A program made the position numbers and the translations under genes. The notes under the pieces are model-generated. The model searched no databases, had not been told where the DNA came from, and saw nothing but the letters and a program-made list of their open reading frames with translations. Source: a virus (taxonomy: Duplodnaviria; Caudoviricetes). Taken from it: 64,000 nucleotides of DNA. The stretch covers positions 14,783-78,782 of the IMG/VR virus record IMGVR_UViG_3300036868_000046; one strand, 5' to 3'. Shown one piece after another: positions 1 to 57,156 of the stretch (its first letter is position 1; each line of letters opens with the position of its first letter).

Positions 1-963
1 CACCACCCCGAGCGGATCGCCGGCGGGGTGACGCTGCCGGGCGGCGACTGCATCGACGTGGTGGGGTACGCGCCGGCCGAGCTGGTGGTGGGGCTCGTCA
101 TCCGGGACAGCCAGTTCCTGGCGTGCGACCGCGGAGGCATCCAGGTGCACGGCGGGACCCTGAACCTCACGGTGACCGGCAACGAGTTCCACCGGACCGG
201 CAACCTCGACCTCAACAGCGAGGGATCGGGCGGATCCAGCCACTGGATCATCGCCGGCAACAGGTTCCGGGCCTCCGACGGCAACCACAGCGAGTACGCC
301 ATCGCGCTCGACCTGGTGGACACCGTGTCGGTGGTCGACAACCAGATCGAGCGCGGCGTGTACCTGTACAGCTGCACGCACTGCTCGCTGGTCAAGAACG
401 CCATCACGATGACCGGGGGCAGCGCGGTCGAGACGGGGACCATCGAGGCCATCAAGGGCTCGAACGATCTGGTGATCGAGGAGAACGTCATCCGCCGGCC
501 GGCGACGCAGGACTTCGGCCCCCTCCTCCACGTTGGTCCGCATGGCACCGCGCAGAGCGTCGGCGTTCGCGTCATTCACAACGAGCTCATCCAGGAGACC
601 ACGTCGGACATGATCTACGCCGAGGGCGTCGCCGACCTGGCCATCGTCGACAACGCGCTCGAATACCGGGCCGCGGCGACCGGCGCCGCCGGGGTGCGTC
701 TTCTGGGCAGCGCCACCTATGGAACGTCGAAGGTGGCGCTGGTCGGCAACACCTTCGCAGGACCGCTCCGCTCGGCCGTCATGACCGGCGGCTCGGGGGA
801 AAGGCAGGGGATCGGCTCGCTCTTGTCCGCCTGGAACATCGCGGAGGCGCCGGGGCTGGCGTGCGTCAACACGTCCGGCATCCAGGGGCCGCTCCTCCTC
901 ATCTACAACAGCTGGCCGGCGGCGATCTGTGGGTCACCGCCCATCCCGCTGATGCTTCCGTAG
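1..963 (+). CDS. Right-handed beta-helix (pectate-lyase-like) protein, 5'-truncated; likely spike or depolymerase
   Basis: Frame is open from base 1. Repeating parallel beta-helix turns (VTGNEF, IAGNRF, VVDNQI, LVKNAI, IEENVI, VIHNEL, IVDNAL, LVGNTF). Confidence 0.8.
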   Translation, partial: HHPERIAGGVTLPGGDCIDVVGYAPAELVVGLVIRDSQFLACDRGGIQVHGGTLNLTVTGNEFHRTGNLDLNSEGSGGSSHWIIAGNRFRASDGNHSEYAIALDLVDTVSVVDNQIERGVYLYSCTHCSLVKNAITMTGGSAVETGTIEAIKGSNDLVIEENVIRRPATQDFGPLLHVGPHGTAQSVGVRVIHNELIQETTSDMIYAEGVADLAIVDNALEYRAAATGAAGVRLLGSATYGTSKVALVGNTFAGPLRSAVMTGGSGERQGIGSLLSAWNIAEAPGLACVNTSGIQGPLLLIYNSWPAAICGSPPIPLMLP

Positions 964-974
964 ATTCCGCTCGC

Positions 975-1086
975 GTCTCAGGCGTTCGCCTGAGCGTGTC
1001 CCCATTGGTCGGTTCGTGGGTCTCAGACCGATGTCTGAGCGCTTCACCCTCGTGGGTCTCAGGCAGACACCTGAGCATTTCCTGAC
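975..1086 (-). repeat. Cluster 1 of CRISPR-repeat-like hairpins (3 units)
   Basis: gtctcaggc-gttc-gcctgagc (975), gtctcagac-cgat-gtctgagc (1020), gtctcagg-cagaca-cctgagc-atttcctgac (1056); intergenic. Confidence 0.85.
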
Positions 1087-1122
1087 TGTGGACATGTCCG
1101 CGCATGATAGTTTCATGTGGAC

Positions 1123-1518
1123 ATGGCGTTCACAGGCACCCCCGTCATCCAGCAGCTGAACGATCGCACGGTGCGCATCACCGGCGTGTCCCTCGCGCTC
1201 TCCACCGCCGGGACCATCGGCCTGACGGGGGCGACGGGCACACCGCCCGACATCACCCTCCCTGCCAACTTCCGCGCGGCCGTGTACAGCTACAACGGCT
1301 CCTCGGTGCCGCTGCAGGCGAGCATCCAGTGCTGGGTCGAGCCGGTGACGATCGCCGGGGTCACCAACCTCCCGCCATCCGTCGGCAAGACTGGGACCGC
1401 CGTGACGGACTTCCGCATCACCATCACGAACACCAACACCGGGCTCGCAACGCAGGACCTCGAGATCCTCGTCATCTCCCACATGCCCTACGTCGGCGCG
1501 CCCGCGCAGATCGCCTGA
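1123..1518 (+). CDS. Small beta-rich virion protein; paralog of 4337..4693
   Basis: MAFTGTPVIQQLNDRTVRITGV...PDITLPA...KTGT...DFRITITN aligns by eye with 4337..4693. Confidence 0.75.
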   Translation: MAFTGTPVIQQLNDRTVRITGVSLALSTAGTIGLTGATGTPPDITLPANFRAAVYSYNGSSVPLQASIQCWVEPVTIAGVTNLPPSVGKTGTAVTDFRITITNTNTGLATQDLEILVISHMPYVGAPAQIA

Positions 1519-1526
1519 GGTCCACC

Positions 1527-2162
1527 ATGTCATCGGACAAGCTGTTCGTCATCCTCGACTTCACCGGGGTCGTCATCGGCGGCACGCAGACGCTGAGCCA
1601 CGGGCTCAAGATCAACGGCCAGCCACTGGCGCCGGACATGGTGTGGCTCCAGTACCCCGACCTCTTCGAGGTCACCGCGGCGACGACCACGAGCATCACC
1701 GTTCACAACGTGAGCGCGAGCGGCGGCGCCACGCTGGCGCTGTGCCAGGTCATCCATCCGATCATGCGCTCGTTCGGTTCGCCGCCTGATGACGGCTCGC
1801 TGATACAGCACATGACGCCCCAGCCGTTCGTAGTCGGCTCGCCGAACGCGACGCCGACTCCGACCCCGACGGGACTGACCGTGACGGCGGTGCAGACAGC
1901 AAACGTCGTCCTGACCTCGAGCTCGAACGTCGTCCGGGTGAACCCGACCGGCGGGGCTTTCAGCGTCACGCTGCCGGCTGCCTCCACGGTCGGTGGCCAG
2001 TCGACCATCGTCAAGAACGTCTCGTCCTCGGGCAACCTCATCACCGTGCTGCCTGGAGGGGGCGACACCATCGACGGTCTGGCACAGGCAACCCTCTCCG
2101 GGGATCACTTCAAGTGGTGGGTCATCAGCGATGGGGCCTCCGGCTGGATGATTGTCGGCTGA
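1527..2162 (+). CDS. Beta-rich fibre/receptor-binding-like protein
   Basis: C-terminal module TLPAA...IVKNV...ITV...GDTIDG...VISDG..W typical of phage fibre tips; Thr/Val/Gly rich. Confidence 0.7.
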   Translation: MSSDKLFVILDFTGVVIGGTQTLSHGLKINGQPLAPDMVWLQYPDLFEVTAATTTSITVHNVSASGGATLALCQVIHPIMRSFGSPPDDGSLIQHMTPQPFVVGSPNATPTPTPTGLTVTAVQTANVVLTSSSNVVRVNPTGGAFSVTLPAASTVGGQSTIVKNVSSSGNLITVLPGGGDTIDGLAQATLSGDHFKWWVISDGASGWMIVG

Positions 2163-2183
2163 CGCATGACGACAGAGACAGGG

Positions 2184-3092
2184 GTCTCAAGGCGATTCCC
2201 TGAGCTTCCTTGCCGTTGGTGCAGGTGTCTCAAGGCATGGAGCCCTGAGCGTTTCTTGCGACGACAGTCTCGGGTCGGGTCTCAAGCACGTCTCAAGGCA
2301 TGGAGCCTTGAGCATTTCTTGCTACCGGATCGCACCTTCGCCGCGCGCGTCCTCGGGTGGCAGGTCTCAAGGCGTTTGAGCCCTGAGCATCCCTTGCGGT
2401 GACGAGCTCGCGGTAGATGAGCCTCCAAGTCTCAAGGCGAGGGCCCTGAGCATCCCTTGTGACAAGTACGGCCTCGCGTGCCTGGTCTCAAGGCGCGGTG
2501 CCCTGAGCATCTCTTGCGACGTCAACGGTAGAGCGCGCATGCTGCACGTCTCAAGGCATGGAGACTTGAGCATTTCTTTGCGACGACAGCCACCGACGCG
2601 TCTCAAGGCATGGAGCCTTGAGCATTTCTTGCTACCGGATCGCACGGAGTTCCCGTCTCAAGACGGGAGCCTTGAGCACTTCCAGAGGGTCCATGGCTGC
2701 AGGTCTCAAGGCGAGGGCCCTGAGCATCCCTTGTGACAAGGACGGCCTCGCGTGCCTACCGACGGAAAGCGTCTCAGGGCGAGAGCTCTGAGCATCCCGT
2801 ATCCCGGGGCTGTCAGTCTCAAGGCGAGGGCCCTGAGCATCCCTTTCCCTGCCCACACATCGCCCGTCGGGTCTCAAAAGACACGGAGCCTTGAGCATCC
2901 CTTGTTGCGTCATTGCTGGGTCTCAGGGCGTCGGCCCTGAGCATCCCTTTGCAACCCACATCACCGCCGGTGCCGATCTCGCGTCTGGAATTCGATCCGT
3001 CCGATCTGCGTCTCAAGGCATGGAGCCTTGAGCGTTTCCAGCGCGTGCTCGAATCTCAAGGTGATGAGCCCTTGAGCATCCTCCTTTGCGAC
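2184..3092 (-). CRISPR. Degenerate, leader-distal part of the CRISPR array (about 16 variant repeats, short irregular spacers)
   Basis: Variant repeats start at about 2184, 2227, 2290, 2364, 2429, 2485, 2548, 2600, 2655, 2703, 2771, 2816, 2871, 2920, 3010 and 3053; all keep the (G/A)TCTCA...TGAGC hairpin. Confidence 0.8.
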
Positions 3093-3154
3093 CGGACCGC
3101 GCGGTAGTCGTCGACGACGGCGCCCCGTTCGACGCTCTCGGTATCTGGATTGGG

Positions 3155-3688
3155 GTCTCAAGGCATGGCGCCTTGAGCATCCCTTGCGACACTTCCGGAC
3201 CGTGTCTCGACATTACGGGAGTTGGAGTCTCAAGGCATGGAGCCTTGAGCATCCCTTGCGACATCTCATGGGCGCCGCCGCCGACAACCACCAACGAGTC
3301 TCAAGGCATGGAGCCTTGAGCATCCCTTGCGACATGTCGGCGGCGACGGCGTATCCGTCGCGCTGCATCTCGTCTCAAGGCATGGAGCCTTGAGCATCCC
3401 TTGCGACCCGTGCCTCGTTGTTGCGCCAGAGCAGCGCTTGTTCGTCTCAAGGCATGGAGCCTTGAGCATCCCTTGCGACATCTCATGGGCGCCGACAACC
3501 ACCAACGAGTCTCAAGGCATGGAGCCTTGAGCATCCCTTGCGACGTCCCCGACCGCGTATCCCGACCGGATGAACCCCTGTCTCAAGGCATGGAGCCTTG
3601 AGCATCCCTTGCGACACAATGTCCGCGCCGCGTGCATCGCCTGCAACCTGGAGTCTCAAGGCATGGAGCCTTGAGCATCCCTTGCGAC
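3155..3688 (-). CRISPR. Canonical CRISPR array, 8 repeats and 7 spacers; repeat (minus strand) GTCGCAAGGGATGCTCAAGGCTCCATGCCTTGAGAC; no cas genes in window
   Basis: 36-bp repeats at 3155 (1 mismatch), 3227, 3298, 3372, 3444, 3509, 3580 and 3653; spacers of 36, 35, 38, 36, 29, 35 and 37 nt. The GTYGCAAGGGAT start and TTGAGAC end resemble type III repeats as recalled from Thermus. Confidence 0.95.
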
Positions 3689-3850
3689 CCTTCGTTCCAA
3701 CTATTCAGTTATCACCAGGACTTGGATACCTGGTTTCGAGCGGTGGGATCTTCCACGCGAAGTGAGTCACGCTCGTTATTGAGCGTGACGAGAATCCCCA
3801 ACGTCTCCAGACAGTTGATACACGCGAGCGGCCTCCTTGGCAAGCGCGTC
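3689..3850 (-). promoter_or_regulatory. Putative CRISPR leader
   Basis: Locally AT-richer non-coding stretch next to the best-conserved repeat; contains inverted repeat gtcacgctc-gttatt-gagcgtgac (3766-3789). Confidence 0.65.
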
Positions 3851-3892
3851 ACCTCTCCGCTCGCGTGATGGTCATCTACCTGGAACTTTCGC

Positions 3893-3920
3893 TTGACAGG
3901 CGATCTCGGATCGCTAGGGT
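3893..3920 (+). promoter_or_regulatory. Sigma70-like promoter with internal palindrome
   Basis: TTGACA-N16-TAGGGT, with gcgatc-tcg-gatcgc inverted repeat at 3900-3914. Confidence 0.5.
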
Positions 3921-3939
3921 GACAACGAGGTGCTTCGAG

Positions 3940-4296
3940 ATGCTGACCACAGAACGACTCCATGCGCTCCGGAGGCGCGCGTCCTCGGTCTACGATGATG
4001 AGACCATGCAGCGCTCAAGAAGCGCTGCCCGAGCGCTTCTCCCAGCGATTCACGCACTTGCGCGATCCAAGGGGCAGACGGCGATGCACGCGATCGCCGC
4101 CGAGCTGGTAGGGGTCGATCCGTCCCTCTGGGACCGGCACGGCTCGCTGGGACGGCTGGCGGCGCGCCTGGCCATCAGCGCGGGGGTCGAGCACGTCCGG
4201 GGAGCGCTGGCGTTCTGGGCGACGGAGCATGATCCCCAGGTGTGGCGGATGATGCTGACCTCGGCCGAGCGACTTCCGGCTGGCTGGACTACGTGA
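3940..4296 (+). CDS. Hypothetical helical protein
   Basis: ATG with upstream GAGG, downstream of the promoter; ORF track 3865..4296. Confidence 0.55.
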   Translation: MLTTERLHALRRRASSVYDDETMQRSRSAARALLPAIHALARSKGQTAMHAIAAELVGVDPSLWDRHGSLGRLAARLAISAGVEHVRGALAFWATEHDPQVWRMMLTSAERLPAGWTT

Positions 4297-4336
4297 GACT
4301 TCCCTTACCTGGGATGGTTCGGGTATCTTCCGGGAC

Positions 4337-4693
4337 ATGGCATTCAACGGAACCGCAGTGCTTCACCAGGTCTCGGATCGAGAGGTCCGCATCACCGGCG
4401 TGCTTCTGACGACCGGGGCGTCCGGGACGATCGCCCTGACGGGCCATACCGGGACGACGCCCGACATCACGCTGCCGGCGGCGTTCAAGCCGGCGCCGTA
4501 CGACTACAGCACGGCGACCGTCTCGCTGATCGACTCGATCCAGTGCACGCTGCGGTACATCGACGGAACCGGCGTGGTGACGAACTGCGTGATCGCCAAG
4601 ACGGGGACCACCAACGCGGACTTCCGCATCACGGTGACCAACCCGAGCGGCTCGTCCACCTCCGCGATGGAGATGTACGTCGAGTACCACTGA
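4337..4693 (+). CDS. Small beta-rich virion protein; paralog of 1123..1518
   Basis: MAFNGTAVLHQVSDREVRITGV...PDITLPA...KTGTTNADFRITVTN. Confidence 0.75.
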   Translation: MAFNGTAVLHQVSDREVRITGVLLTTGASGTIALTGHTGTTPDITLPAAFKPAPYDYSTATVSLIDSIQCTLRYIDGTGVVTNCVIAKTGTTNADFRITVTNPSGSSTSAMEMYVEYH

Positions 4694-4695
4694 AG

Positions 4696-5406
4696 CTACG
4701 GCTTCTCCTGGACCTGGAGACGGATTCCGGGCGTGCGGGCGACGCCGGCCAGATCCTCCCAGCCGTACGCGTGGCGACCGTAGTGGAGTAGGCGAATGGT
4801 GGTGTCGGCCATGATGGCGACCTGGCATGTCCGGGCTCGCTTCGAGAACGCGAAATCCTCGCCCAGGTAGGCCACTGGGCGGCTGCCCGGGTCAATCATG
4901 GCGATGGTGGTCGTGTCAATCATGGGCAGGAAGTACGGCCGCATGACTCGCCCGTGGTACCCGACGCAGTCTGGGATTGGGGACTCGTCATCGAGCCGAT
5001 GGAAGACCTCGGCCCGGACGAGCGTGAACCCCATGGCGGCGTACTGGATCTCGATCAGGCCGCCGCCCTCGCCGAGGGTGAGCTCGGTGGTGTCGGGCAG
5101 GAGGCGACAGGCGAGCTCCGGTACCCCCTTCTTCGTGTAGATGCCGCACACGAAGGGGAGGTTGTGGCCGAGCAACCGATCGACGTCGTCCGGCTCGAAC
5201 CCGATGTCCGCGTCGATCCACATGAGCTCGGAGAACCCGTCGGCCAGCGCCTCGGTCGCCATGAGGCACCGTATCTGATCGATGCAGGCGGATCCGCGCA
5301 GGACGCGGACCTTGTAGCCACGTCGCGACAGCTCGGCGAGGCTCCGCTCGCACTCGGGCTCGAGGGCGCCGAGCGAGGGGACCAGGATGCAGGTGGCGGC
5401 GGTCAT
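4696..5406 (-). CDS. GT-A fold glycosyltransferase-like protein
   Basis: DxD motif LMWIDADIGF, AMGFTLV, GEDFAFS and TTIRLLHYG motifs. Confidence 0.8.
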   Translation of the reverse strand: MTAATCILVPSLGALEPECERSLAELSRRGYKVRVLRGSACIDQIRCLMATEALADGFSELMWIDADIGFEPDDVDRLLGHNLPFVCGIYTKKGVPELACRLLPDTTELTLGEGGGLIEIQYAAMGFTLVRAEVFHRLDDESPIPDCVGYHGRVMRPYFLPMIDTTTIAMIDPGSRPVAYLGEDFAFSKRARTCQVAIMADTTIRLLHYGRHAYGWEDLAGVARTPGIRLQVQEKP

Positions 5407-5597
5407 TCCGGCCCCGGGATCGGCATGATGGCGTACCACTCCGAGGTCCACAGGGTCGCCTCGACCATGCATGACCTCAGTGCCTCCAGATGTCGGGCGA
5501 CGGCGGCGACAGCGGCATCGTACGTCTCGGTCACCTCGACCGGACGCTGGAGCTGTCTGGTAGCATCGCACTTCATGACGACGAACTTGATGCTCAC
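5403..5597 (-). CDS. Hypothetical protein
   Basis: 4-nt start/stop overlaps with both neighbours. Confidence 0.55.
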   Translation of the reverse strand: MSIKFVVMKCDATRQLQRPVEVTETYDAAVAAVARHLEALRSCMVEATLWTSEWYAIMPIPGPE

Positions 5598-5971
5598 TTG
5601 GCCTGCCTCAGCTTCTCGTCGATCACCGCGCGATCGATGAGCCGGTCGATGGCGCCGGCGTCGTCATCTTCCTCGAGTCCATCGAGCTCGTCGTCCGCAT
5701 GGACGTCGGCCGGGCGGGTCTCGTTGGCCAGGGCGACCCGGCCGATGTTCTCGATGGGTGGCGCTTTTTTGGGGGCGACGACGCTCATCGGCTCGACGCG
5801 CGCGGTCTTGGACAGCCGGTTGCCGACCACGTACTCCTTGAGCTTGTGGGCGGCGTCCCAGGACAGGCCCTCCCCCCAGAGCTTCACCCAGTCCTTGTCG
5901 CGGACGCGGTAGAGCATCCCCTCCTGCGGCACGAGCTTGACGATCTTCTGCGGCTTGTGGTGCGGTCTCAT
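5594..5971 (-). CDS. Hypothetical protein with acidic C-terminus
   Basis: ATG preceded by TAGGCT-N7; overlaps next gene by 4 nt. Confidence 0.6.
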   Translation of the reverse strand: MRPHHKPQKIVKLVPQEGMLYRVRDKDWVKLWGEGLSWDAAHKLKEYVVGNRLSKTARVEPMSVVAPKKAPPIENIGRVALANETRPADVHADDELDGLEEDDDAGAIDRLIDRAVIDEKLRQAK

Positions 5972-6029
5972 CGCCGTGAGCCTATCACCACGTGACACGG
6001 ACCTGAACGGTTCAACGTGGGGCATCGAG

Positions 6030-6144
6030 GTCTCAGTCGTCGACTGAGCGCGTCCGGCCAAGAGTCTCAGGCTTGAGCCTGAGCGTTCTCGGGCTGGCGC
6101 CTGAAGCGGCCACATTCCTTCGTCTCAGTCTCAGGTGACTGAGC
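6030..6144 (-). repeat. Cluster 2 of CRISPR-repeat-like hairpins (3 units)
   Basis: gtctcagtc-gtc-gactgagc (6030), gtctcaggc-ttga-gcctgagc (6064), gtctcagtc-tcaggt-gactgagc (6122, overlapping the stop of 6131..6466). Confidence 0.85.
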
Positions 6145-6466
6145 TATCCGATGCGGCGGCGCCCTTCTTGAAGATGGTCTTCCAGATTGCGGCGCTCACC
6201 GGGATGAGCAGCGTCGCGGCGATCTGCAGCCACTTCTGCAGTTCGGCATGCTGGAGCGTGAGGACGCCGGCTCTGAGCTGGTTGATCACGTCCGCTTCCC
6301 ACTGCGTGTAGGGGAGCGTCGGATCGGAGAGCGTGTTCTGCCCAGGGTCGTCGGCGGCGCCGAGCGAGCCGAGGGGGCCCAGCGTACGACGCGGGATCGC
6401 CAGTCCGAAGCTCGTCGACACCCCCGAGAGCGCCCTTGGCCGTCTGTGTGCCTTGCGGTAGTACAT
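6131..6466 (-). CDS. Small virion membrane protein
   Basis: MYYRK leader, LGSLGA motif, C-terminal hydrophobic helix followed by basic residues. Confidence 0.7.
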   Translation of the reverse strand: MYYRKAHRRPRALSGVSTSFGLAIPRRTLGPLGSLGAADDPGQNTLSDPTLPYTQWEADVINQLRAGVLTLQHAELQKWLQIAATLLIPVSAAIWKTIFKKGAAASDSSVT

Positions 6467-6475
6467 GGGAGCCCT

Positions 6476-7090
6476 TCAGTTGGGGACGTTCGGCGACAGC
6501 GAGCCGTAGTCGTCATCGCCGATGATGTCCGACAGGTCGGAGAGGTCGTCGGTCGCGGATGTGGGAGGCGCTGCGGTGGGGGGACGGGGAGAGGGGGTGC
6601 TCATGCGCCCCGCGTCGTAGGCATCGTTGTAGGTGTACTCGTTGGGGTCGTCGGCCACCGGCCGCAGCGCCCGCATCTGGAGATGCGGAAGCCCGAGGTC
6701 GGCGTTCGGGTCCGCGGCCGGCAGCTGGGCGTTCGGGTCCGCGAGCATCCAGCCGAGGGACGGCACGTAGAGCTGGATGAGGTTCTGGATGGCGGCGATC
6801 GCGGCGCCGACCACGATCGGGGTGTGGTACTTCTCGAGCCACTTCCACTTGTGGGCGAGCAGCCACGCGGATAGGAACGCTCCGACGGCCGCAGCCGCGC
6901 CCGCGTGCTTGCCGATCGACGGTGCCCGTTTCGCCACCTGCTCGGTCGCGACCTTGGTGATGAACCGGGTCAGCGCGAACCCGGCGAAGCCGGGCCCGAT
7001 GAACTCGGCCAGGTCGGTCATGAGCGGGGGGTTATGTCGTGGCGCAGCCGCGGCCCTGCCGTATCTGCGCTTGAGCCTGGTTCGAGCCAT
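6476..7090 (-). CDS. Virion membrane/core protein with RHNP motif
   Basis: Basic N-terminus ending RHNP, 2-3 hydrophobic segments, acidic tail. Confidence 0.7.
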   Translation of the reverse strand: MARTRLKRRYGRAAAAPRHNPPLMTDLAEFIGPGFAGFALTRFITKVATEQVAKRAPSIGKHAGAAAAVGAFLSAWLLAHKWKWLEKYHTPIVVGAAIAAIQNLIQLYVPSLGWMLADPNAQLPAADPNADLGLPHLQMRALRPVADDPNEYTYNDAYDAGRMSTPSPRPPTAAPPTSATDDLSDLSDIIGDDDYGSLSPNVPN

Positions 7091-7136
7091 CCCCCCTATC
7101 GTACCCCCAGGACGCCAGGAGGCACAAGGTCGTCGG

Positions 7137-7483
7137 GTCTCAGCGGAGGGCCGCTGAGCAGCCCCAGGGCAGTTCCGCTTGCGGTCTCAGGCTCCATCAC
7201 GAGCTCTTGCTAGTCTCAGGCACACCTGAGCGGGTCCCTACGACGCTATGGTCTCAATCGAGGTTGAGCGTATCCGAATATCACCCGTCTCAGCACCCGT
7301 TCGTGGCCTGAGCTCGTGCATGTCTCAGGGTGCTCGGCTACGGTGTGTCTCAACCAAGCGTTGAGCAGCCACGATACCTGATGTCTCATGGTAATCACCT
7401 GAGCAGTCCCAGCCACGGATGACGACTATTACCTATTCGATTGTCACGACCGCTCCTCTCATGTCTCTGACTATGGGCAGAGC
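7137..7483 (-). repeat. Cluster 3 of CRISPR-repeat-like hairpins (about 9 units)
   Basis: Units at 7137, 7184, 7213, 7251, 7287, 7322 (half), 7347, 7383 and 7463; fixed GTCTC(A)...(T)GAGC ends with different paired inner stems. Confidence 0.85.
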
Positions 7484-7540
7484 GCATCCCTACGGGCCCA
7501 GAGATACCAGCGCGCGCGCCACCTGACAAGCACGATCCGG

Positions 7541-10030
7541 TCAGCCGCCCAGGAGAATGACCTTACCCGGATTGCCGGCGGATCCAGCCACGGATATGCC
7601 GCCGCCCGCAGCACCACCTGCACCTCCGGTCACATCCGTGGTCGGGAACGTCGTGCCGGTGGTCATCGAGATGACCACGTAGCCGCCACCACCACCGCCG
7701 CCACCACCGGAGTTGATCGTCGCGTTGCCCGCGCCGCCGGCGCCGCCTTTGGCGGACACCGTGATGTTCGTCGGGTTCGTGATCTGGCCGGTGATGAGGA
7801 CGACGTAGCCACCGCCCGACCCGCCGCCACCGCCCGACCCACCGACCGCACCGCCGCCGGAGGCGCCGCCGGTGCCGCCGCAGACCGCGGTGGAGGTTGA
7901 AAGGCGCAACCGGGCGGCGGTGGCGCGCACGAAGTTGTTGAGCGAGCCGTTGGTGTCGGGGGAGAGGGTGGGCGCCGTCGATCCGACGCCGCCGGTGAAC
8001 CCCGTGCCTGCGCCGCCAGAGCCACCGAGCCCCGCCTGAAACGACGTGGGCCACTCGCCGGAGACCGGCGCCTGCCCGGTCTGCCCGTTGGATGCAGCAG
8101 GCGCGGAGACGCCGGCGCCCGACGCGGTGACCAGCGTGCCGTTGCCGGTGAACGCCGCACCACCCGCCGCGCTACCGCCGGCGCCGTTGCCGGCCGTGCC
8201 GGGCAGCCCGATCATCTGGATGGTGAGCGTGCCGGAGCTCGGGCCGGCGAGCGTCTTGGCGTAGATCACGAAGCCGCCGGTGTTGATCACCGCCGAGGTC
8301 GTCGCGGAGGCGACCGACCAGTACATGTCGCGGGTCAGGGTGACGGTTCCCGAGAACGTGGTGGCGCCGTCGCTGCCGTCGCCGGCCAGGAGAACCGTGG
8401 ATGGGGCCGAGGTCACGTTGGCGCTCGCGGTGACGGTGGAGCCGTTGAGCCCGAACGAGACGCCGTTCGAGTTCGAGAACACCACCGTGCCCGCTCCCAC
8501 GGATGCCGTGCCGGCGCTGATCGCGACCCCGCCGCCCGGGACCGTGTAGCTGCCGGTGACCGTCGAGCCGTTGAGCCCGAACGAGAGACCGTTGGAGTTC
8601 GAGAACACCACCGTGCCCGCGCCCACCGACGCGGTCCCCGCGCTGATGGCCGCCGGCGCCGTCGACTGCGTGTAGCTCGCGGTGACGGTGGAGCCGTTGA
8701 GGCCGAACGAGACGCCGTTCGAGTTCGAGAACACCACCGTGCCTGCACCGACGGATGCGGCGCCGGCGCTGATCGCCGCCGGTGCGGTGGGCACGGTGTA
8801 GCTGCCGGTGACCGTCGAGCCGTTGAGGCCGAAGGCGAGGCCGTTGGAGTTCGAGAACACGACGGTCCCGGCGCCGACGGATGCGGCGCCGGCGCTGATG
8901 GCGGCTGGGGCGGTCGACTGCGTGTAGCTCGCCGTGATGCGCGTCGAGCCGCTCAGGCCGAACGACACGCCGTTGGAGTTCGAGAACACGATGGTCCCGC
9001 TCGTCGCCGTCTGCGTGCCGGCGGCGATCGCCCCGGGCGCGGTCGACTGCGAGTAGCTCGCCGTGACCGTGGAGCTCGACAGGCCGAACGTGACACCGTT
9101 CGAGTTCGAGAACACCACGACCCCGCTCGTCGCCGTCTGCGTGCCTGCGGCGAGGCCGACGCCCGACGCCGTACCACCGGCGGTCTGCACCGAGGCGGTC
9201 ACCGTGCCGTTGGAGAGGCCGAACGAGACGCCGTTCGAGTTCGAGAACACGACGGTCCCCGCGCTCCGGCTCTGCGTGCCGGCGCTCACCACGAGCGGTG
9301 AGTAGCTCGCCGTCACCGTCGAGTTGCTCATCCCGAACGAGATGCCGTTCGAGTTCGAGAAGTCGACGACGCCGCTCGTCGCCGACTGGGTTCCCGCGCT
9401 GACCGCCACGCCCGCGCTCGTGATGTCCTCGCTGAGCGCCGCGAAGCCGATGTTGACGACGGGGCTTCCGGGGTTGATGGGAGGGACGCCGCTGCGCCGG
9501 ACCCGCATCCAGGCGGCGGCGATCACGCCGGACTGGCCGCCCGGCCCCTGCGAGAACACGAACGGCTGCGCCCAGTCGGTCGTGCCGTCGACCGACACCT
9601 CGACGATGAGCGTCCCGCCGAACGCGCCGCCGACCTGCACCGTCTTGAACAGGCCCAGCACCGCCGTGACGTCCACCGCGGCGCCCGCCCCCGTGCCGGC
9701 CGGCACCGGCAACGAGACGAACGACACGCCCGAGGCCGTGCCGCCGATGTTCACCTGCGACGTGCCACCGAAGGTCGCGTTGAACCCGGACGACCGCACG
9801 CGCATCCAGCGCGCCGCGACCTGGACCGTCGTGGATCCGGAGTTCTGGATGCTCGCGACCGACTGCCACGAGCCGCCCTGCGCGGCGTCGTTGTTGTATT
9901 CGATGTTGATGGTCCGCTGTGCGGTGCCGACCACCACGATGGTCTTGGTCGCACCGAACGCAGAGACGTCCACGGATGCGCCGACGCCGTTGGCCACCGG
10001 GACGGGGAGCGAAACGAACAGGTTGCTCAC
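7541..10030 (-). CDS. Large Gly/Ser/Thr-rich spike or fibre protein with internal repeats
   Basis: GTG start with GGAGG RBS; duplicated N-terminal ~100-aa domain, eight FSNSNG repeats and a Gly-rich C-terminal domain. Confidence 0.8.
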   Translation of the reverse strand: MSNLFVSLPVPVANGVGASVDVSAFGATKTIVVVGTAQRTINIEYNNDAAQGGSWQSVASIQNSGSTTVQVAARWMRVRSSGFNATFGGTSQVNIGGTASGVSFVSLPVPAGTGAGAAVDVTAVLGLFKTVQVGGAFGGTLIVEVSVDGTTDWAQPFVFSQGPGGQSGVIAAAWMRVRRSGVPPINPGSPVVNIGFAALSEDITSAGVAVSAGTQSATSGVVDFSNSNGISFGMSNSTVTASYSPLVVSAGTQSRSAGTVVFSNSNGVSFGLSNGTVTASVQTAGGTASGVGLAAGTQTATSGVVVFSNSNGVTFGLSSSTVTASYSQSTAPGAIAAGTQTATSGTIVFSNSNGVSFGLSGSTRITASYTQSTAPAAISAGAASVGAGTVVFSNSNGLAFGLNGSTVTGSYTVPTAPAAISAGAASVGAGTVVFSNSNGVSFGLNGSTVTASYTQSTAPAAISAGTASVGAGTVVFSNSNGLSFGLNGSTVTGSYTVPGGGVAISAGTASVGAGTVVFSNSNGVSFGLNGSTVTASANVTSAPSTVLLAGDGSDGATTFSGTVTLTRDMYWSVASATTSAVINTGGFVIYAKTLAGPSSGTLTIQMIGLPGTAGNGAGGSAAGGAAFTGNGTLVTASGAGVSAPAASNGQTGQAPVSGEWPTSFQAGLGGSGGAGTGFTGGVGSTAPTLSPDTNGSLNNFVRATAARLRLSTSTAVCGGTGGASGGGAVGGSGGGGGSGGGYVVLITGQITNPTNITVSAKGGAGGAGNATINSGGGGGGGGGYVVISMTTGTTFPTTDVTGGAGGAAGGGISVAGSAGNPGKVILLGG
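8420..9406 (-). repeat. Eight in-frame ~38-45-aa repeats (AISAG..SG/AG.VVFSNSNGVSFGL.GSTVTASY)
   Basis: Directly visible in the translation and the DNA. Confidence 0.9.
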
Positions 10031-10062
10031 GGATATACCTCCACTTGGGCTTTCGGGGCCGT

Positions 10063-11559
10063 CTACCGCCACACGGGGCGGCCGAGCTGCTCGCCCGGCT
10101 CGTCGATGAAGTGGAGGCTTCCGAACGCGTCCTGGATCTCGGAGAGCTCGACCTCGTCCGGGTCCATGTCATCCACGAGGTCGGCGCGCGACAGGTTGAG
10201 GAGCTGCTCGCGGTTCGCGACGAGGAGCTGCTTCTTGAAGTCTTCCAGCGACAGGCCCTGGTAGCCCGGCATGCCTCGGAGCGCGCGCCAGACCGCAGCG
10301 ATGAACACCTTGTCGCTGCCGTAGCGACCCATCGCCCGGCCGCTCGGACCCTTCCGCTCTCGCACCGAGGGCAAGACCGACAGCACTGCCTGCGCCAGAT
10401 CCCCGATCGAATGGGGGGACGCCGTGGCGACGATCGTGCGCGGCACTGGCGGTGGCGATGGCGGCGCAACCGGCGTGTCCACGACGAAGTGATACGTCGC
10501 GATGTCGTCGTAGGTCTCCGACTCGGCGACCTCGTTCGGGTTCATCGCCGCCACGAGATCCGCGCGCGCCAGCACGAGCTGCCGAGCGCGGTGCGCCTTG
10601 GTGAGCTCGTGTTTGAACTCCGGGAAAGCCATCCCGCCCATCCGCGGATCGTTCGCCAGGACGCGCCAGATCGCGCTGATGAACACCTTGCGATCGCCGA
10701 ACCGGCCGCGCCAGCGTCCATCTGGATCGGTCTCGGCGCGGATGGTCGGCATCACGGAGCGAACGATCGCGGCCAGCGCGGCTGGATCGGGTCGCGCGCG
10801 CCGGACCGGAGCTGGAGCTGGAGCCGGCGAGGGCGACAGGACCGCTTCGCGAAACGCCTGGATGCCGGCCGGCTTGGCCAGAAACCTGGCGTTCTCATCC
10901 TTCGCGTCCTCGTTGCCGGTGAAGAACAGGAACCTGTCGACGTACTGCGGGTAGTTGTCGCGCACGTAGTGGAAGAAGTCGATGCCGCTCTTGTCGCCGA
11001 TCACGTCGACGTCCGAGACGATCAGCACCGGCTCGAGGAACCGCAGGTTGCCGATCATGCCGTCGACGTTGTCCGAGACGACGACATGCGCCCCCGGGAT
11101 GATCTTCTTGATCATCCGGGTCGTCGACTTCTGCAGCGCCGGCTCGTCCTCGAGCAAGAGGACCGTGGCCTCCCCCGCGTTGCGCTTGACGGGGTTTGGA
11201 TGGATGCCACCCCGCGGCTCCGCGCCACCCTCCCATCCGACCTCGATGTCGTCGCCCCGGCGTTCGACCTCGACGGTGAACGTCGGGACCGAGATGTCGG
11301 CCCGCGCCGCGGCGTCGACGTAGGAGTCCGGCGCTTCGCCGATCGCGAGCTGGACCAGGCACTCCCCAATGTCCACGCCGCCACCGGCGCGCCGCAGCCG
11401 GTGCGCGACGTCGAGCACGCCCTCGTGGTTGGCGAGCTCGTAGAGGTCGGCCAGCTCTCCAGCCGCCTCCACGATGGCCTTGGGCGCCCGACCGACGCCT
11501 CCGATCTGGTCACGCCAGATCGCGGCGGCCATCTCCAGGATGAGTGCCTGTCGCGTCAT
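10063..11559 (-). CDS. Multidomain protein: response-regulator receiver (REC) domain plus two tandem helical repeat domains
   Basis: VLLLEDEP...LIVSDVDV...FLFFTG...FLAKP receiver motifs; duplicated G(R)FG.KVFI.A.WR...F.K.L..A.R...L.L.RADLV..M.P.EV..SE domain. Confidence 0.75.
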   Translation of the reverse strand: MTRQALILEMAAAIWRDQIGGVGRAPKAIVEAAGELADLYELANHEGVLDVAHRLRRAGGGVDIGECLVQLAIGEAPDSYVDAAARADISVPTFTVEVERRGDDIEVGWEGGAEPRGGIHPNPVKRNAGEATVLLLEDEPALQKSTTRMIKKIIPGAHVVVSDNVDGMIGNLRFLEPVLIVSDVDVIGDKSGIDFFHYVRDNYPQYVDRFLFFTGNEDAKDENARFLAKPAGIQAFREAVLSPSPAPAPAPVRRARPDPAALAAIVRSVMPTIRAETDPDGRWRGRFGDRKVFISAIWRVLANDPRMGGMAFPEFKHELTKAHRARQLVLARADLVAAMNPNEVAESETYDDIATYHFVVDTPVAPPSPPPVPRTIVATASPHSIGDLAQAVLSVLPSVRERKGPSGRAMGRYGSDKVFIAAVWRALRGMPGYQGLSLEDFKKQLLVANREQLLNLSRADLVDDMDPDEVELSEIQDAFGSLHFIDEPGEQLGRPVWR

Positions 11560-11562
11560 GCC

Positions 11563-12063
11563 TCAGGCATCCCGGGCGCGGTTGTCCTCGATGACGAGCC
11601 GCTTCTTGCAGAGCGTGGCGCCGGTGTGCACCTGGCCCTGCACGTGCGCGGCGCGCCCCGCCTCCCAGGTGCACTGGAACGGCTCGATCGAGATCCGCCC
11701 GATGGAGGCGATCTCGACCAGCTCGCGCGCGCCCGCGACCGCAATGCGCTGGCGCATCGGGTTGAGCGCATGCGGCGCGAAGTCGATCGCCTTGCGGTCT
11801 CCCCGGACGGTCAGAAGCTTCTGGCAGCCGGGGCAGACCAGGTGGACCTTGAGCGGTTCACCCGGGATCGCGTAGACGTCGAGCGTCAGGAACGTGTCCT
11901 TGTAGACGACCACGACCTCCTGCTTGCTCGAGGGCCCGGCCGCGCCCAGAAGCCCAGGGTGACCTTCCGGGCCCGGGGCATCGCCGGCCAGCTGCACGCA
12001 CTGCCGGCTCGTCCCGAGCAGCGACTGCACCTGGGGGTCCTGTAGGTCGATGGTGACTGTCAC
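11563..12063 (-). CDS. Hypothetical protein with CxxC
   Basis: GTG overlaps the upstream stop; VCPGCQK. Confidence 0.6.
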   Translation of the reverse strand: MTVTIDLQDPQVQSLLGTSRQCVQLAGDAPGPEGHPGLLGAAGPSSKQEVVVVYKDTFLTLDVYAIPGEPLKVHLVCPGCQKLLTVRGDRKAIDFAPHALNPMRQRIAVAGARELVEIASIGRISIEPFQCTWEAGRAAHVQGQVHTGATLCKKRLVIEDNRARDA

Positions 12064-12323
12064 GACGCCGGCTTTCTGCGCAGGAGGATGAACGCGATGG
12101 CGGCCACCGCGGCGCCACCGATGACCAGGGTGCTCGTGCTGATGCCCTGGGCATTCAGCGCCGTCTGGAGGTCCCGGTTGGCCTGGTCGGCGGCGCCCGC
12201 CTGGCGCTGGCCCGAGCCGTAGAACCGCAGGACGGATCCGACGCCCCCCAGAATGTCGTCCCAGGTGCTGCCGAAGCCGGAGTAGCCGGCCCGGCTGATG
12301 AGGGTGTCCTTGACGTACGGCAT
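12060..12323 (-). CDS. Small virion membrane protein
   Basis: GGAGG RBS; MPYVK leader, SGFGS motif, C-terminal TM followed by RRK. Confidence 0.7.
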   Translation of the reverse strand: MPYVKDTLISRAGYSGFGSTWDDILGGVGSVLRFYGSGQRQAGAADQANRDLQTALNAQGISTSTLVIGGAAVAAIAFILLRRKPAS

Positions 12324-12328
12324 GGAGA

Positions 12329-12688
12329 TCACCTCCGCGTGAGGAGCACGACGAGCAGCACGGCGCCGCCGGCGAGCGCGATCTTGGTGGTCGTCGACAT
12401 GCCCGGCGCGGCGACCGGCGGCGCCGTGGGCGCCGGCGGCGACAGGATGGCGCCGATCGCCGAGCCGAGCCGATCCCAGGTCGATGGGCAGCGACCTGCG
12501 CCGTTCGGGTCACCGTACGTCGATCCGTCCGCGTTGAACGTCACGTAGCCGCCGTCGGTGGTCGCGCAGTAGTTGCCGGGCTGCCGGTACGAGTCACAGG
12601 CCGGGATCGAGGCGCACGGCGTCTCGTCGGTGAACGTGGTGCCGAGGCCCAGGAGCGCGGGGCGCCTGTACTTGTTGTAATACGCCAT
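12329..12688 (-). CDS. Small virion membrane protein
   Basis: MAYYNKY leader, LLGLGT motif, Cys-containing ectodomain, C-terminal TM followed by RR. Confidence 0.7.
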   Translation of the reverse strand: MAYYNKYRRPALLGLGTTFTDETPCASIPACDSYRQPGNYCATTDGGYVTFNADGSTYGDPNGAGRCPSTWDRLGSAIGAILSPPAPTAPPVAAPGMSTTTKIALAGGAVLLVVLLTRR

Positions 12689-28943: not shown

Positions 28944-29011
28944 TAGGCGAAACCGCGCCGAGAGCGCGGTCTGCGGGGGGGCACCCCTACCCCGCACTGA
29001 TGAGCCAGGGG
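28944..29011 (+). ncRNA. Type II hammerhead ribozyme 2 (predicted cut after 28971)
   Basis: Stem I tgcgggg/ccccgca, CTGATGA, stem II ggc/gcc, pseudoknot CCCCT/AGGGG. Confidence 0.9.
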
Positions 29012-29036
29012 ACAGGCCGACACCAGGAGAATCGCA

Positions 29037-29372: not shown

Positions 29373-29441
29373 TAGGCGAAACCGCGCAGTGAGCGCGGTC
29401 TGCAGGTGATGACGCCCTACCCTGCACTGATGAGCATGGGC
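29373..29441 (+). ncRNA. Type II hammerhead ribozyme 3 (predicted cut after 29400; weak stem II)
   Basis: Intact core; stem I tgcagg/cctgca; pseudoknot GCCC/GGGC; stem II only 2 bp. Confidence 0.75.
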
Positions 29442-29458
29442 TAAAGAGGAAGTCAACG

Positions 29459-55851: not shown

Positions 55852-56252
55852 AGCGCTCGGCTCCGCTCCGCCGCAAGACGCCGCTCCGCACGACACGCCG
55901 AACGAAGTACCGCCGGCGTGAGCGCGACGTGCCGTACATGCTGTGGGTGAAGCGGCAGCCGTGTTGCGCGCTGACCCTGGGCCGCTGTCGTGGGCCAGTC
56001 GAGGCCGACCACACCGGGCGCCGTGGACTGAGCCAGAAGGCGAGCGACGGATCGTGTATCCCGCTCTGCCGTCATCACCACCGATGCCGGGATAGCTTCT
56101 CGGGACCCTTCCGAGACTGGTCGAAGGCCGACATGCGCGCGTGGCTTGCCGCCATGCGGCATCTCATGCGTCACATCTGGGACTGCTCAGGGTCAACCTT
56201 GAGACCGCCGACGTGCGCCACGGCCTCGCTCACCAGTCGGGTGAGACCATAG
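55848..56252 (+). CDS. HNH-like nuclease (DUF968/DUF1364-type)
   Basis: WVKRQPCC...C...VEADH...GLSQKASD...IPLCRHHH. Confidence 0.75.
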   Translation: MKRSAPLRRKTPLRTTRRTKYRRRERDVPYMLWVKRQPCCALTLGRCRGPVEADHTGRRGLSQKASDGSCIPLCRHHHRCRDSFSGPFRDWSKADMRAWLAAMRHLMRHIWDCSGSTLRPPTCATASLTSRVRP

Positions 56253-56385
56253 TATCGCTCATGGACGCCATGAGACGCGTTGAGGCGGTTGGATATGCTC
56301 ATCCAGCGACGAACCGTGATGAGACGTGCGGCAACCAGAGACGCCATGGCGCCCCTTGTGGCAACGTGGCGGGATGCGATCAGGG

Positions 56386-57156
56386 ATGCTGACACCCGAA
56401 GAGATGGCTTCGATCCTCACCGAGGGCCGTACGGCCGAGCAGATCCGCGCCAGCGGCATCGGCTTTGACCGCGTGATGGAGGTCCCCAGCACGAACACGT
56501 ACCGCGACCAGTCGACGGTGCTCATCATGCCCAACCGGGTCCGCGAGTTCGACTTCCGGGTCATCTCGGCGATCTTCTCGATGATCGCGCCGATGAACCA
56601 GAAGCGGCACATGATGTACTGCATCGGCGACGAGGTGGGGGTGGCGTACAACAACCTCATCAAGGCCATCCTCGACAACCCCGACCTTGCAAAGTTCAAG
56701 TATCTGATGACGGTCGAGGCGGACAACGTCGTCCCGGCCGACGCGCACATCCGCCTCCTCGAGACGATCGAGGCCGGGCAGTGGGACGCCGTGTCGGGTC
56801 TCTACTTCACCAAGGGCGACGTGAACATGCCGATGGCCTACGGGGACCCGGCCAGGTTCGAGGCGACGGGCGAGCTCGAGTTCACGCCGCGGGACGTGAC
56901 CGAGGCCCTGACCAAGGGGATGGTCATGCCGGTCAACGGCATCGCGATGGGATGCGCCCTGTGGCGCCTGGAGATGTTCAAGGAGATCCCCGGGCCCTGG
57001 TACATCACGGTCAACGACGTGGTGGGCAGCGGGGTGATGGCATTCACGCAGGACCTGTGGTTCTGCAAGACGGCCCGCAAGGCGGGCCGGCGGTTCGCGG
57101 TCGACTGTCGCGTCCGCGTCGGTCACATGGACCTCGCGACGAAGGAGATCTACTAA
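56386..57156 (+). CDS. GT-A fold glycosyltransferase-like protein
   Basis: YLMTVEADNV (DxD-like), VSGLYFTK, AMGCALW, TQDLWFC, VRVGH. Confidence 0.8.
   Translation: MLTPEEMASILTEGRTAEQIRASGIGFDRVMEVPSTNTYRDQSTVLIMPNRVREFDFRVISAIFSMIAPMNQKRHMMYCIGDEVGVAYNNLIKAILDNPDLAKFKYLMTVEADNVVPADAHIRLLETIEAGQWDAVSGLYFTKGDVNMPMAYGDPARFEATGELEFTPRDVTEALTKGMVMPVNGIAMGCALWRLEMFKEIPGPWYITVNDVVGSGVMAFTQDLWFCKTARKAGRRFAVDCRVRVGHMDLATKEIY

Follow-up and report, generated by a model that had tools for sequence, protein, structure and literature searches.

The repeat cluster at positions 2184–3688 of a phage genome segment raised a question: which Cas protein, if any, is served by a virus-borne CRISPR array that has no cas gene at its side? 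The window that we analyzed, 64,000 nt in length, comprises bases 14783–78782 of the 78,782-bp virus record IMGVR_UViG_3300036868_000046 (66% GC) and itself carries no cas gene. An earlier sequence-only reading of the window had called the array cas-less and supposed that it borrows the Cas proteins of a host. The complete record provides a different answer. A cas12m gene lies on its plus strand at genome positions 10539–12392, ending 2,390 nt before the first base of the window and 4.6 kb from the array; the phage thus encodes its own effector. The array is not cas-less, and the borrowing of host Cas proteins is not supported. That the array is virus-borne, by contrast, was correctly perceived: a terminal repeat of ~125 nt is present in the record, which IMG/VR assigns to the class with direct terminal repeats and CheckV rates as 100% complete. 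The phage is present in wetland metagenome runs. The same reading had held that a cas operon just outside the window, in a chromosomal context, would make this an ordinary host array; a cas gene is indeed nearby, but the context is that of a phage, and adaptation genes are absent. We conclude with considerable confidence that 2184–3688 is the array of a type V-M (Cas12m) system that the phage itself encodes; its irregular trailer, along with hairpins dispersed elsewhere in the genome, is probably kept for Cas12m. Coordinates below refer to the window unless they are marked as genome positions.

The cas12m product (617 aa; the ribosome-binding site AAAGGAG precedes its ATG) is a full-length Cas12m homologue with WED, REC, RuvC and TNB zinc-ribbon regions. 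It matched the solved chain 23vw_A with E=1.3e-63 in two stretches spanning residues 7–579, and the Cas12m2 structures 8hio/8hhl with E=6e-10 over residues 19–580. On the long cas12m open reading frame (ORF), the Pfam family Cas12f1-like_TNB scored 21.9 bits at residues 623–668, under its cut-off of 26.3. In the alignment, N300 stands opposite H317 of Cas12m2 and the catalytic D of 23vw, and the IIDDF and WDQDANA motifs are kept. Cas12m is a natural CRISPR-interference (“CRISPRi”) effector, small and binding without cutting, and adaptation genes are usually absent from type V-M systems. Indeed, no Pfam match to Cas1, Cas2 or Cas4 was found anywhere in the complete genome. When bound next to a protospacer-adjacent motif (PAM), the family members tested to date block transcription or replication without cleavage. 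This holds for proteins with D-E-D, H-D-D or N-D-D triads, and the N-D-D orthologues bind DNA beside the PAM without cutting it (Bigelyte 2024, PMC11013384). By analogy, the phage protein, whose RuvC triad reads N-D-D, is expected to be a DNA binder and not a cutter.

Does the array match this effector? Its canonical block (3155–3688, minus strand), delimited by sequence comparison, contains eight 36-nt repeats and seven spacers. The repeats are near-perfect, as had been described: seven copies are perfect and one has a single mismatch, with start-to-start distances of 65–74 nt. The spacers, all on the minus strand, lie at 3616–3652 (S1), 3545–3579 (S2), 3480–3508 (S3), 3408–3443 (S4), 3334–3371 (S5), 3263–3297 (S6) and 3191–3226 (S7). 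By ascending coordinate they measure 36, 35, 38, 36, 29, 35 and 37 nt, within the 29–38-nt range given earlier. In minus sense, the repeat is GTCGCAAGGGATG-CTCAAGGC-TCCAT-GCCTTGAG-AC, that is, a 13-nt tail and an 8-bp stem closed by a 5-nt loop, then AC. Published Cas12m CRISPR RNAs (crRNAs) are arranged as a stem, A-C and then the guide, and the Ms, Tf and Un orthologues read GCUCAG..CUGAGAC; in MmCas12m2, base-specific readout involves C(-1) and the G(-23):A(-2) pair, and the seven nucleotides at the 5' end are disordered. All of the minus-sense units in the array display this Cas12m handle (G-CUCA-stem-loop-stem-UGAG-AC), and the repeat accordingly types as Cas12m (V-M), like the Ms, Tf and Un scaffolds. 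Because the match to these published scaffolds holds on the minus strand only, we read the array on that strand; the leader therefore occupies 3689–3843 (minus strand), adjoining the canonical units, at the end where it had been expected.

The leader, delimited from sequence, is comparatively poor in GC. It contains a 9-bp hairpin at ~3768–3791 and a weak sigma-70-like promoter (-35 TTGCCA at 3843–3838, a 17-nt spacer and -10 TATCAA at 3820–3815); this promoter is putative, because a stricter consensus promoter scan found none in the leader. The sole terminator-like matches in a terminator scan were repeats that by chance are followed by T-rich tails. An Rfam search of the array returned neither CRISPR-DR nor any other family. 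In a limited check of both strands, the repeat’s 5' tail had no second copy outside the array that could act as an anti-repeat of the trans-activating crRNA type. The repeat core was absent from IMG/VR and from 185,579 species-representative genomes (GTDB). Contigs from four wetland runs, compared over positions 1–8000, carry the array in identical, variant-free form.

Beyond the canonical block lies a trailer (2184–3077, minus strand) of 16 handle-hairpin units with stems of 7–8 bp. They start at 3053, 3010, 2920, 2871, 2816, 2771, 2703, 2655, 2600, 2548, 2485, 2429, 2364, 2290, 2227 and 2184, at intervals of 43–102 nt, and the earlier count of about 16 irregular variants was therefore accurate. 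The same reading had seen a gradient from canonical to minimal repeats with an eroding tail. Erosion is real, inasmuch as the 12 nt on the 5' side of the hairpin (RNA sense) are partly, and only partly, degraded; a monotonic gradient is not, since canonical hairpins reappear at 3010, 2600 and 2290 and blocks have been duplicated (2286–2335 with 2596–2645, and 2423–2483 with 2697–2757). The trailer is thus better described as a mosaic in which several subfamilies of the repeat occur together with duplicated blocks. Messy arrays also occur among relatives of the system: that of L004 has spacings of 50–78 nt and a triplicated spacer, those of L019, L027 and L029 have irregular ends, and in L008 full repeats are intermixed with 3' half units.

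The degraded tails stand beside a hairpin that has been maintained. The pattern GCTCA-N5-22-TGAGAC occurs 41 times in the window, against 0.81 occurrences expected from shuffles. When 28 distinct units were aligned, 97.6% of the cells proved to be paired, a value reached by none of 500 shuffles, and the claim that the variants keep their hairpin is thus borne out. The inner pairs vary: pair 5 is GC in 12 units, AU in 8, GU in 6, CG in 1 and UA in 1, and pair 6 is GC in 17, CG in 3, AU in 2, GU in 1 and UA in 1 (again, 0/500 shuffles reach the observed value). Among 26 distinct cores read in minus sense, there are 11 G:U pairs and a single A.C. Together, the excess of paired cells, the covariation and the strand-specific G:U bias argue that the hairpin is under selection as an RNA structure, in accord with the selection on the hairpin that had been proposed from its persistence. 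Pair 5 also differs between groups: it is G-C in the dispersed units and in the Ms, Tf and Un scaffolds, G:U in many trailer units and A-U in the canonical ones. Because of this difference, some of the trailer may preserve earlier forms of the repeat and not the decay of the present one.

The handle is not confined to the array. It recurs bare, in ~18 copies at five places, with the same G-CTCA..TGAG-AC signature, which substantiates the proposed link between the array and the dispersed clusters. Cluster A (975–1076, minus strand) contains three hairpin-only units between the plus-strand genes 1–963 and 1117–1518. Cluster B (5965–6144, minus strand; four hairpin-only units) belongs to a minus-strand operon, in whose sense it reads; 47 nt separate the end of its last unit from the ATG (5917) of a 107-aa gene. 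Cluster C (7137–7404, minus strand) has six hairpin-only units and two half units, and its last unit ends 46 nt short of an ATG (7090) that opens a 204-aa gene; the product of this gene has 241 relatives, many of them on ~80-kb contigs that also encode Cas12m. Cluster D (56185–56325, plus strand; four hairpin-only units) precedes the plus-strand, phrog_1574-like gene 56326–57156; its third unit is 49 nt before the GTG of this gene, and its fourth is 48 nt before an in-frame ATG. Finally, a solitary handle at genome positions 10471–10490 lies 49 nt before the ATG of cas12m itself. Four of the five dispersed sites are therefore in the sense of the local genes, and the distance from hairpin to start is 46–49 nt at four of the phage’s own sites and 48 nt at two sites in L008. 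When the 18 cluster guides were compared with the sequence within ±2 kb, the best matches were 12–15/20 with seeds of ≤9 nt, which is the chance level, and no partial promoter match of the type seen with CRISPR repeat-like RNAs (crlRNAs) was found.

Bare handles also occur in related phages. Kin phages, whose Cas12m proteins are 70–72% identical to that of this phage (76% at the DNA level), have them. In L033, L034 and L036 the handle before cas12m is kept with different inner stems, and in L037 and L038 handles with changed stems are kept in the intergenic regions that are orthologous to those of clusters B and C; the L038 hairpin orthologous to cluster C, for example, has a different inner stem. 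More distantly, L039, L007 and L008 have a solitary handle before cas12m or its operon, and its stem type is that of their own repeat or has covarying inner pairs. Dispersed hairpins in the distant relatives likewise match the repeat of their own genome: GCTCGG..CCGAGAC in L008 and L039, GCCCGG..CCGGGAC in L007 and GCCAG..CTGGAC in L002. L039 and L021 have dispersed hairpins and no array within 10 kb. Given the retention of handles in kin and relatives, matched to each genome’s own repeat, the link between effector and hairpin is conserved across the family.

Two further features of these loci were observed. In L038, where this phage has cluster B, a tRNA-Arg(TCT) gene (1250–1323) is flanked on either side by a nearly identical copy of ‘catcggacta’ with a handle hairpin, as though insertion of the tRNA had duplicated the hairpin. 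Directly before cas12m in three relatives (L008 8906–9985, L007 141–1070 and L002 8869–9750) is a conserved 360-aa gene that starts MGKKTERIAELE, is absent from this phage and has a leader that carries a handle hairpin.

The spacers were examined for targets. Spacer S2 is identical over 35/35 nt to the coding strand of the phage’s own cas12m (genome 11461–11495), at residues ~308–319, right after RuvC motif I. Contigs from three runs overlap spacer 2 and run on into cas12m (loose ends at 3544/3579), confirming that the 35-mer is shared. The cas12m alleles of kin match the spacer at just 28–30/35 positions, and we therefore conclude that it derives from this lineage. Tolerated pick-up of self sequence has about an even chance of being the explanation; such a self match would be survivable because the effector only binds. 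Negative feedback on cas12m is possible but has less in its favor, and use of the spacer as a weapon against near-identical kin appears unlikely.

For the other six spacers, the searches revealed no target. The whole array had no match in 50,697 GenBank phage records, seeds of 19–22 nt from S1, S3/S6 and S5 had no exact match in IMG/VR, and none of the spacers matched any of 38 related loci, except S2 with the kin cas12m genes. Within the phage’s own genome, guides other than S2 had no target above chance at the nucleotide or peptide level or locally. Self-targeting was likewise not found in the arrays of 20 relatives, inside the flanks examined. Spacer S6 is a copy of S3 bar a 6-nt in-frame indel, and its reverse complement resembles a gene start (ATG GGC GCC ...). 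We considered a reading of S1, S5 and S3/S6 as gene-start spacers, with the ATG at the far end; it was dropped for S5, the forward frame of which resembles the cas12m site of S2. Without gaps, S5 and that site are 61% identical (shuffle p=0.0006), but ~170 genome positions score equally and the test was post hoc. It is suggestive that S5 resembles the same conserved cas12m site in a diverged allele; the exact peptide of this reading occurs in no database Cas12m.

How, then, might the system work? In the scheme that we favor, the array would be transcribed leftwards (minus strand) from the leader at ~3689–3843. By extrapolation from characterized orthologues, Cas12m would recognize each handle, cut the precursor and take the next 17–20 nt as guide. 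Without Cas1, Cas2 and Cas4, the array would change mainly by duplication, deletion and point mutation, and the lack of an adaptation module would thus explain why spacers are duplicated, why the spacing is irregular and why the trailer is long and mosaic. Within this trailer, selection would hold only those parts that Cas12m reads base-specifically: the base of the stem, the G:A and C-1. The bare handle would have spread to ~18 more sites, mostly 5' leaders of phage genes, including that of cas12m, and the dispersed handles most likely let Cas12m bind or process the phage’s own mRNAs. Spacer 2 would either damp cas12m transcription or be a tolerated pick-up from self or kin. A bolder version, which we advance only tentatively, is that in this ~80-kb phage family Cas12m has ceased to be a weapon and now regulates the phage’s own genes. 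Handles in the leaders of cas12m and of virion- and glycosylation-type genes would mark transcripts for binding or cleavage, with effects on their 5' ends and on stability or translation; spacer 2 would close a negative feedback loop, and the trailer would be a working store of handle RNA.

Several observations weigh against this scheme. Transcription, strand and processing of the array are all inferred, and no RNA run that contains the phage was found. The canonical repeat permits just GGA:UCC (3 bp) between its 5' tail and loop where the solved scaffolds stack an upstream stem or pseudoknot, and the hairpin-only units, with loops of 3–5 nt and no pseudoknot partner, are without these elements altogether; the relative L008 retains a 5-bp pseudoknot. 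Duplication relates many of the units, and independent compensatory events are consequently fewer than the counts imply. Cluster A is antisense to both of its neighboring genes. At orthologous sites the distance from hairpin to ATG varies, being 66 nt in L038 and 24–37 nt before cas12m or the gene preceding it (geneX) in relatives. The orientation of the array, inverted with respect to a cas12m gene 4.6 kb away, is unlike that of nearly all relatives. With regard to the guides, six of the seven spacers lack a target in the searches described above, and the 5' flank of the spacer 2 protospacer (..CCGAGG) is unlike the known Cas12m PAMs, which are T- or C-rich; binding of Cas12m to its own gene through this spacer may fail.

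Other explanations were weighed against the same evidence. The notion of an orphan array, carried by the virus but dependent on Cas proteins of the host, has in its favor the 64-kb window devoid of cas genes and a whole genome devoid of adaptation genes. It is scarcely credible given a full-length cas12m gene on the same genome, with a crRNA handle in its family that matches the repeat, and no host array is known: the repeat core was in neither database searched. A more serious competitor grants function to the eight canonical units alone and treats the trailer, like the dispersed hairpins, as inert: relics of old repeats and scars of recombination in slow decay, with hairpins that seem conserved only because the copies are young or were homogenized by duplication. 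Several trailer units do duplicate one another, some of the trailer “spacers” shrink to ~10–13 nt when the 5' tail is counted as repeat, no target of a trailer or cluster guide was found either genome-wide or in the vicinity, and the arrays of relatives are messy as well. Inert copies, however, would not be expected to show stem substitutions that are overwhelmingly pair-preserving with a G:U bias on one strand, nor to persist with altered inner stems in orthologous intergenic regions of kin phages, the cas12m genes of which are ~76% identical in nucleotide sequence. The match of dispersed hairpins to each distant relative’s own repeat type, in some cases with no array within 10 kb, and the recurrent position 46–49 nt before start codons also speak against relics, and we judge this explanation improbable.

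The remaining two alternatives grant the hairpins a function of another kind. As RNA decoys, the hairpin-only units might soak up the Cas12m of a host or of a rival phage, or time the activity of the phage’s own effector. Solitary repeat units of phages do inhibit cognate Cas proteins (PMC10651486), and the units here retain the protein-contacting parts of the handle and are inferred to sit in transcribed leaders. Yet the phage itself has the cognate effector, such that its own system would be weakened by decoys; no known host carries this repeat; and the fixed distance before start codons, along with the clade-wide placement before cas12m, speaks for a role in cis on mRNAs. Decoys are thus decidedly improbable. 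Alternatively, the dispersed elements could be palindromic DNA operators or terminators of another phage factor, with only a secondary likeness to CRISPR repeats. The motif GTCTCA..TGAGAC is nearly palindromic, and a fixed 46–49 nt to the ATG would also suit an operator that lies immediately upstream of a short-leader promoter. We nonetheless consider it very improbable that these are DNA operators or terminators, because the motif is asymmetric (5' G, 3' AC) like the Cas12m handle, its inner positions vary while staying complementary with departures that are G:U on one strand, and the hairpin type of relatives tracks their own Cas12m repeat; in addition, the hairpins are not followed by U tracts.

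The preferred interpretation, a Cas12m array with handles kept for that effector, may be set against known systems. Compared with the type V-M systems in the literature (MmCas12m2, GoCas12m and MsCas12m; Wu 2022; Omura 2023, PMC10442227; Bigelyte 2024, PMC11013384), this one is similar in its ~600-aa effector with RuvC and zinc-ribbon TNB, its N-D-D triad (as in MkCas12m and PpCas12m), its 36-nt repeat ending in stem-A-C, its lack of adaptation genes and the transcription-blocking binding expected of it. It differs in its 80-kb phage genome, in the inverted array 4.6 kb away, in the simple 8-bp hairpin with a pseudoknot of ≤3 bp, in the long mosaic trailer, in the spacer against its own effector gene and in the ~18 bare handles scattered in mRNA leaders. 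A Cas12m encoded by a phage is already known, as UnCas12m and MvCas12m attest. MvCas12m of myxophage MV-1 (bioRxiv 10.64898/2026.09.14.751636) similarly lies by an array with one type of repeat, without cas1/2/4 and without spacer targets; that array has eight spacers. The two phages are not the same, since MV-1 originates from a biofilm in wastewater and has a Cas12m reported as D305/E463/D555, whereas the present phage is from wetland and has N at RuvC-I. Neither a degenerate trailer nor dispersed hairpins nor a self match is described in the MV-1 preprint. That its Cas12m is the first from a phage, as the preprint claims, is doubtful, because UnCas12m came from an IMG/VR scaffold (Bigelyte 2024, PMC11013384). 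As a side observation, virus Rctr197k (GenBank KX853510.1, 112405–114162) has a gene for a Cas12m homologue (33% identity, 97% coverage), the annotation of which says only ‘similar to transposase’.

Solitary repeats near effector genes also have precedents. Like tracr-L, CreR/CreA and the crlRNAs, the handle before cas12m is a solitary degenerate repeat upstream of an effector gene, an arrangement found in 34–49% of V-A loci (Shmakov 2023, bioRxiv 10.1101/2023.03.03.530964). By analogy, it fits autoregulation of cas by binding without cleavage. Unlike crlRNA or CreR, this unit is inside the 5' leader in mRNA sense, has no pseudo-spacer match to a nearby promoter, and belongs to a set that also heads unrelated genes of virion and glycosylation type. 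RNA anti-CRISPRs (Racrs) are a second parallel, being single repeats in phages that keep the Cas-binding hairpin (Camara-Wilpert 2023, PMC10651486); they mimic the host repeat so as to poison the host effector, whereas the cognate effector here is the phage’s own. In the papers that we read, we found no description of a long hairpin-only trailer, of a spacer against the system’s own effector gene, or of family-wide bare handles in mRNA leaders.

If these interpretations are correct, a CRISPR effector that acts on the transcripts and genes of its own element would represent a step between defence and gene regulation. The mosaic trailer would show how an array evolves without Cas1–Cas2, by duplication and deletion with selection confined to the nucleotides that the effector reads, and would thereby define a minimal Cas12m handle useful for engineering. 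The perfect self match, on the same proviso, would mean that binder-type systems tolerate self spacers, which are raw material for regulatory circuits.

Lastly, some features of the neighborhood deserve mention. A plus-strand promoter-like site at 3893–3942 (TTGACA, 16 nt, TAGGGT) is divergent to the leader of the array and is followed by a small ORF (ATG at ~3940) with no family match. The long ORF at 1104–2162 comprises two genes, 1117–1518 and 1527–2162, according to a frame plot of third-codon-position GC (GC3). The second of these and 4337–4693, both on the plus strand, flank the array; they share a short similar stretch (1966–1986 vs. 4467–4487) and similar codon-position GC, and may be paralogues. 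The phrog_1574-like proteins encoded at 4696–5571 (minus strand) and 56326–57156 (plus strand) are paralogous, and each is in an operon headed by handle clusters; the latter has a weak glycosyltransferase-like match, and the gene that follows it (57157–58893) encodes a NAD-dependent sugar epimerase/dehydratase. The ORF at 7541–10072 (843 aa) has no family match; with its tandem repeat at 8423–9118 (minus strand; periods of 126 nt and 381 nt) and unusually high second-position GC, it probably encodes a repetitive fibre-like protein. Two type II hammerhead ribozymes are located on the plus strand of the window at 28945–29014 and 29374–29446, with scores of 44.8 and 40.5 bits, above the Rfam gathering score.

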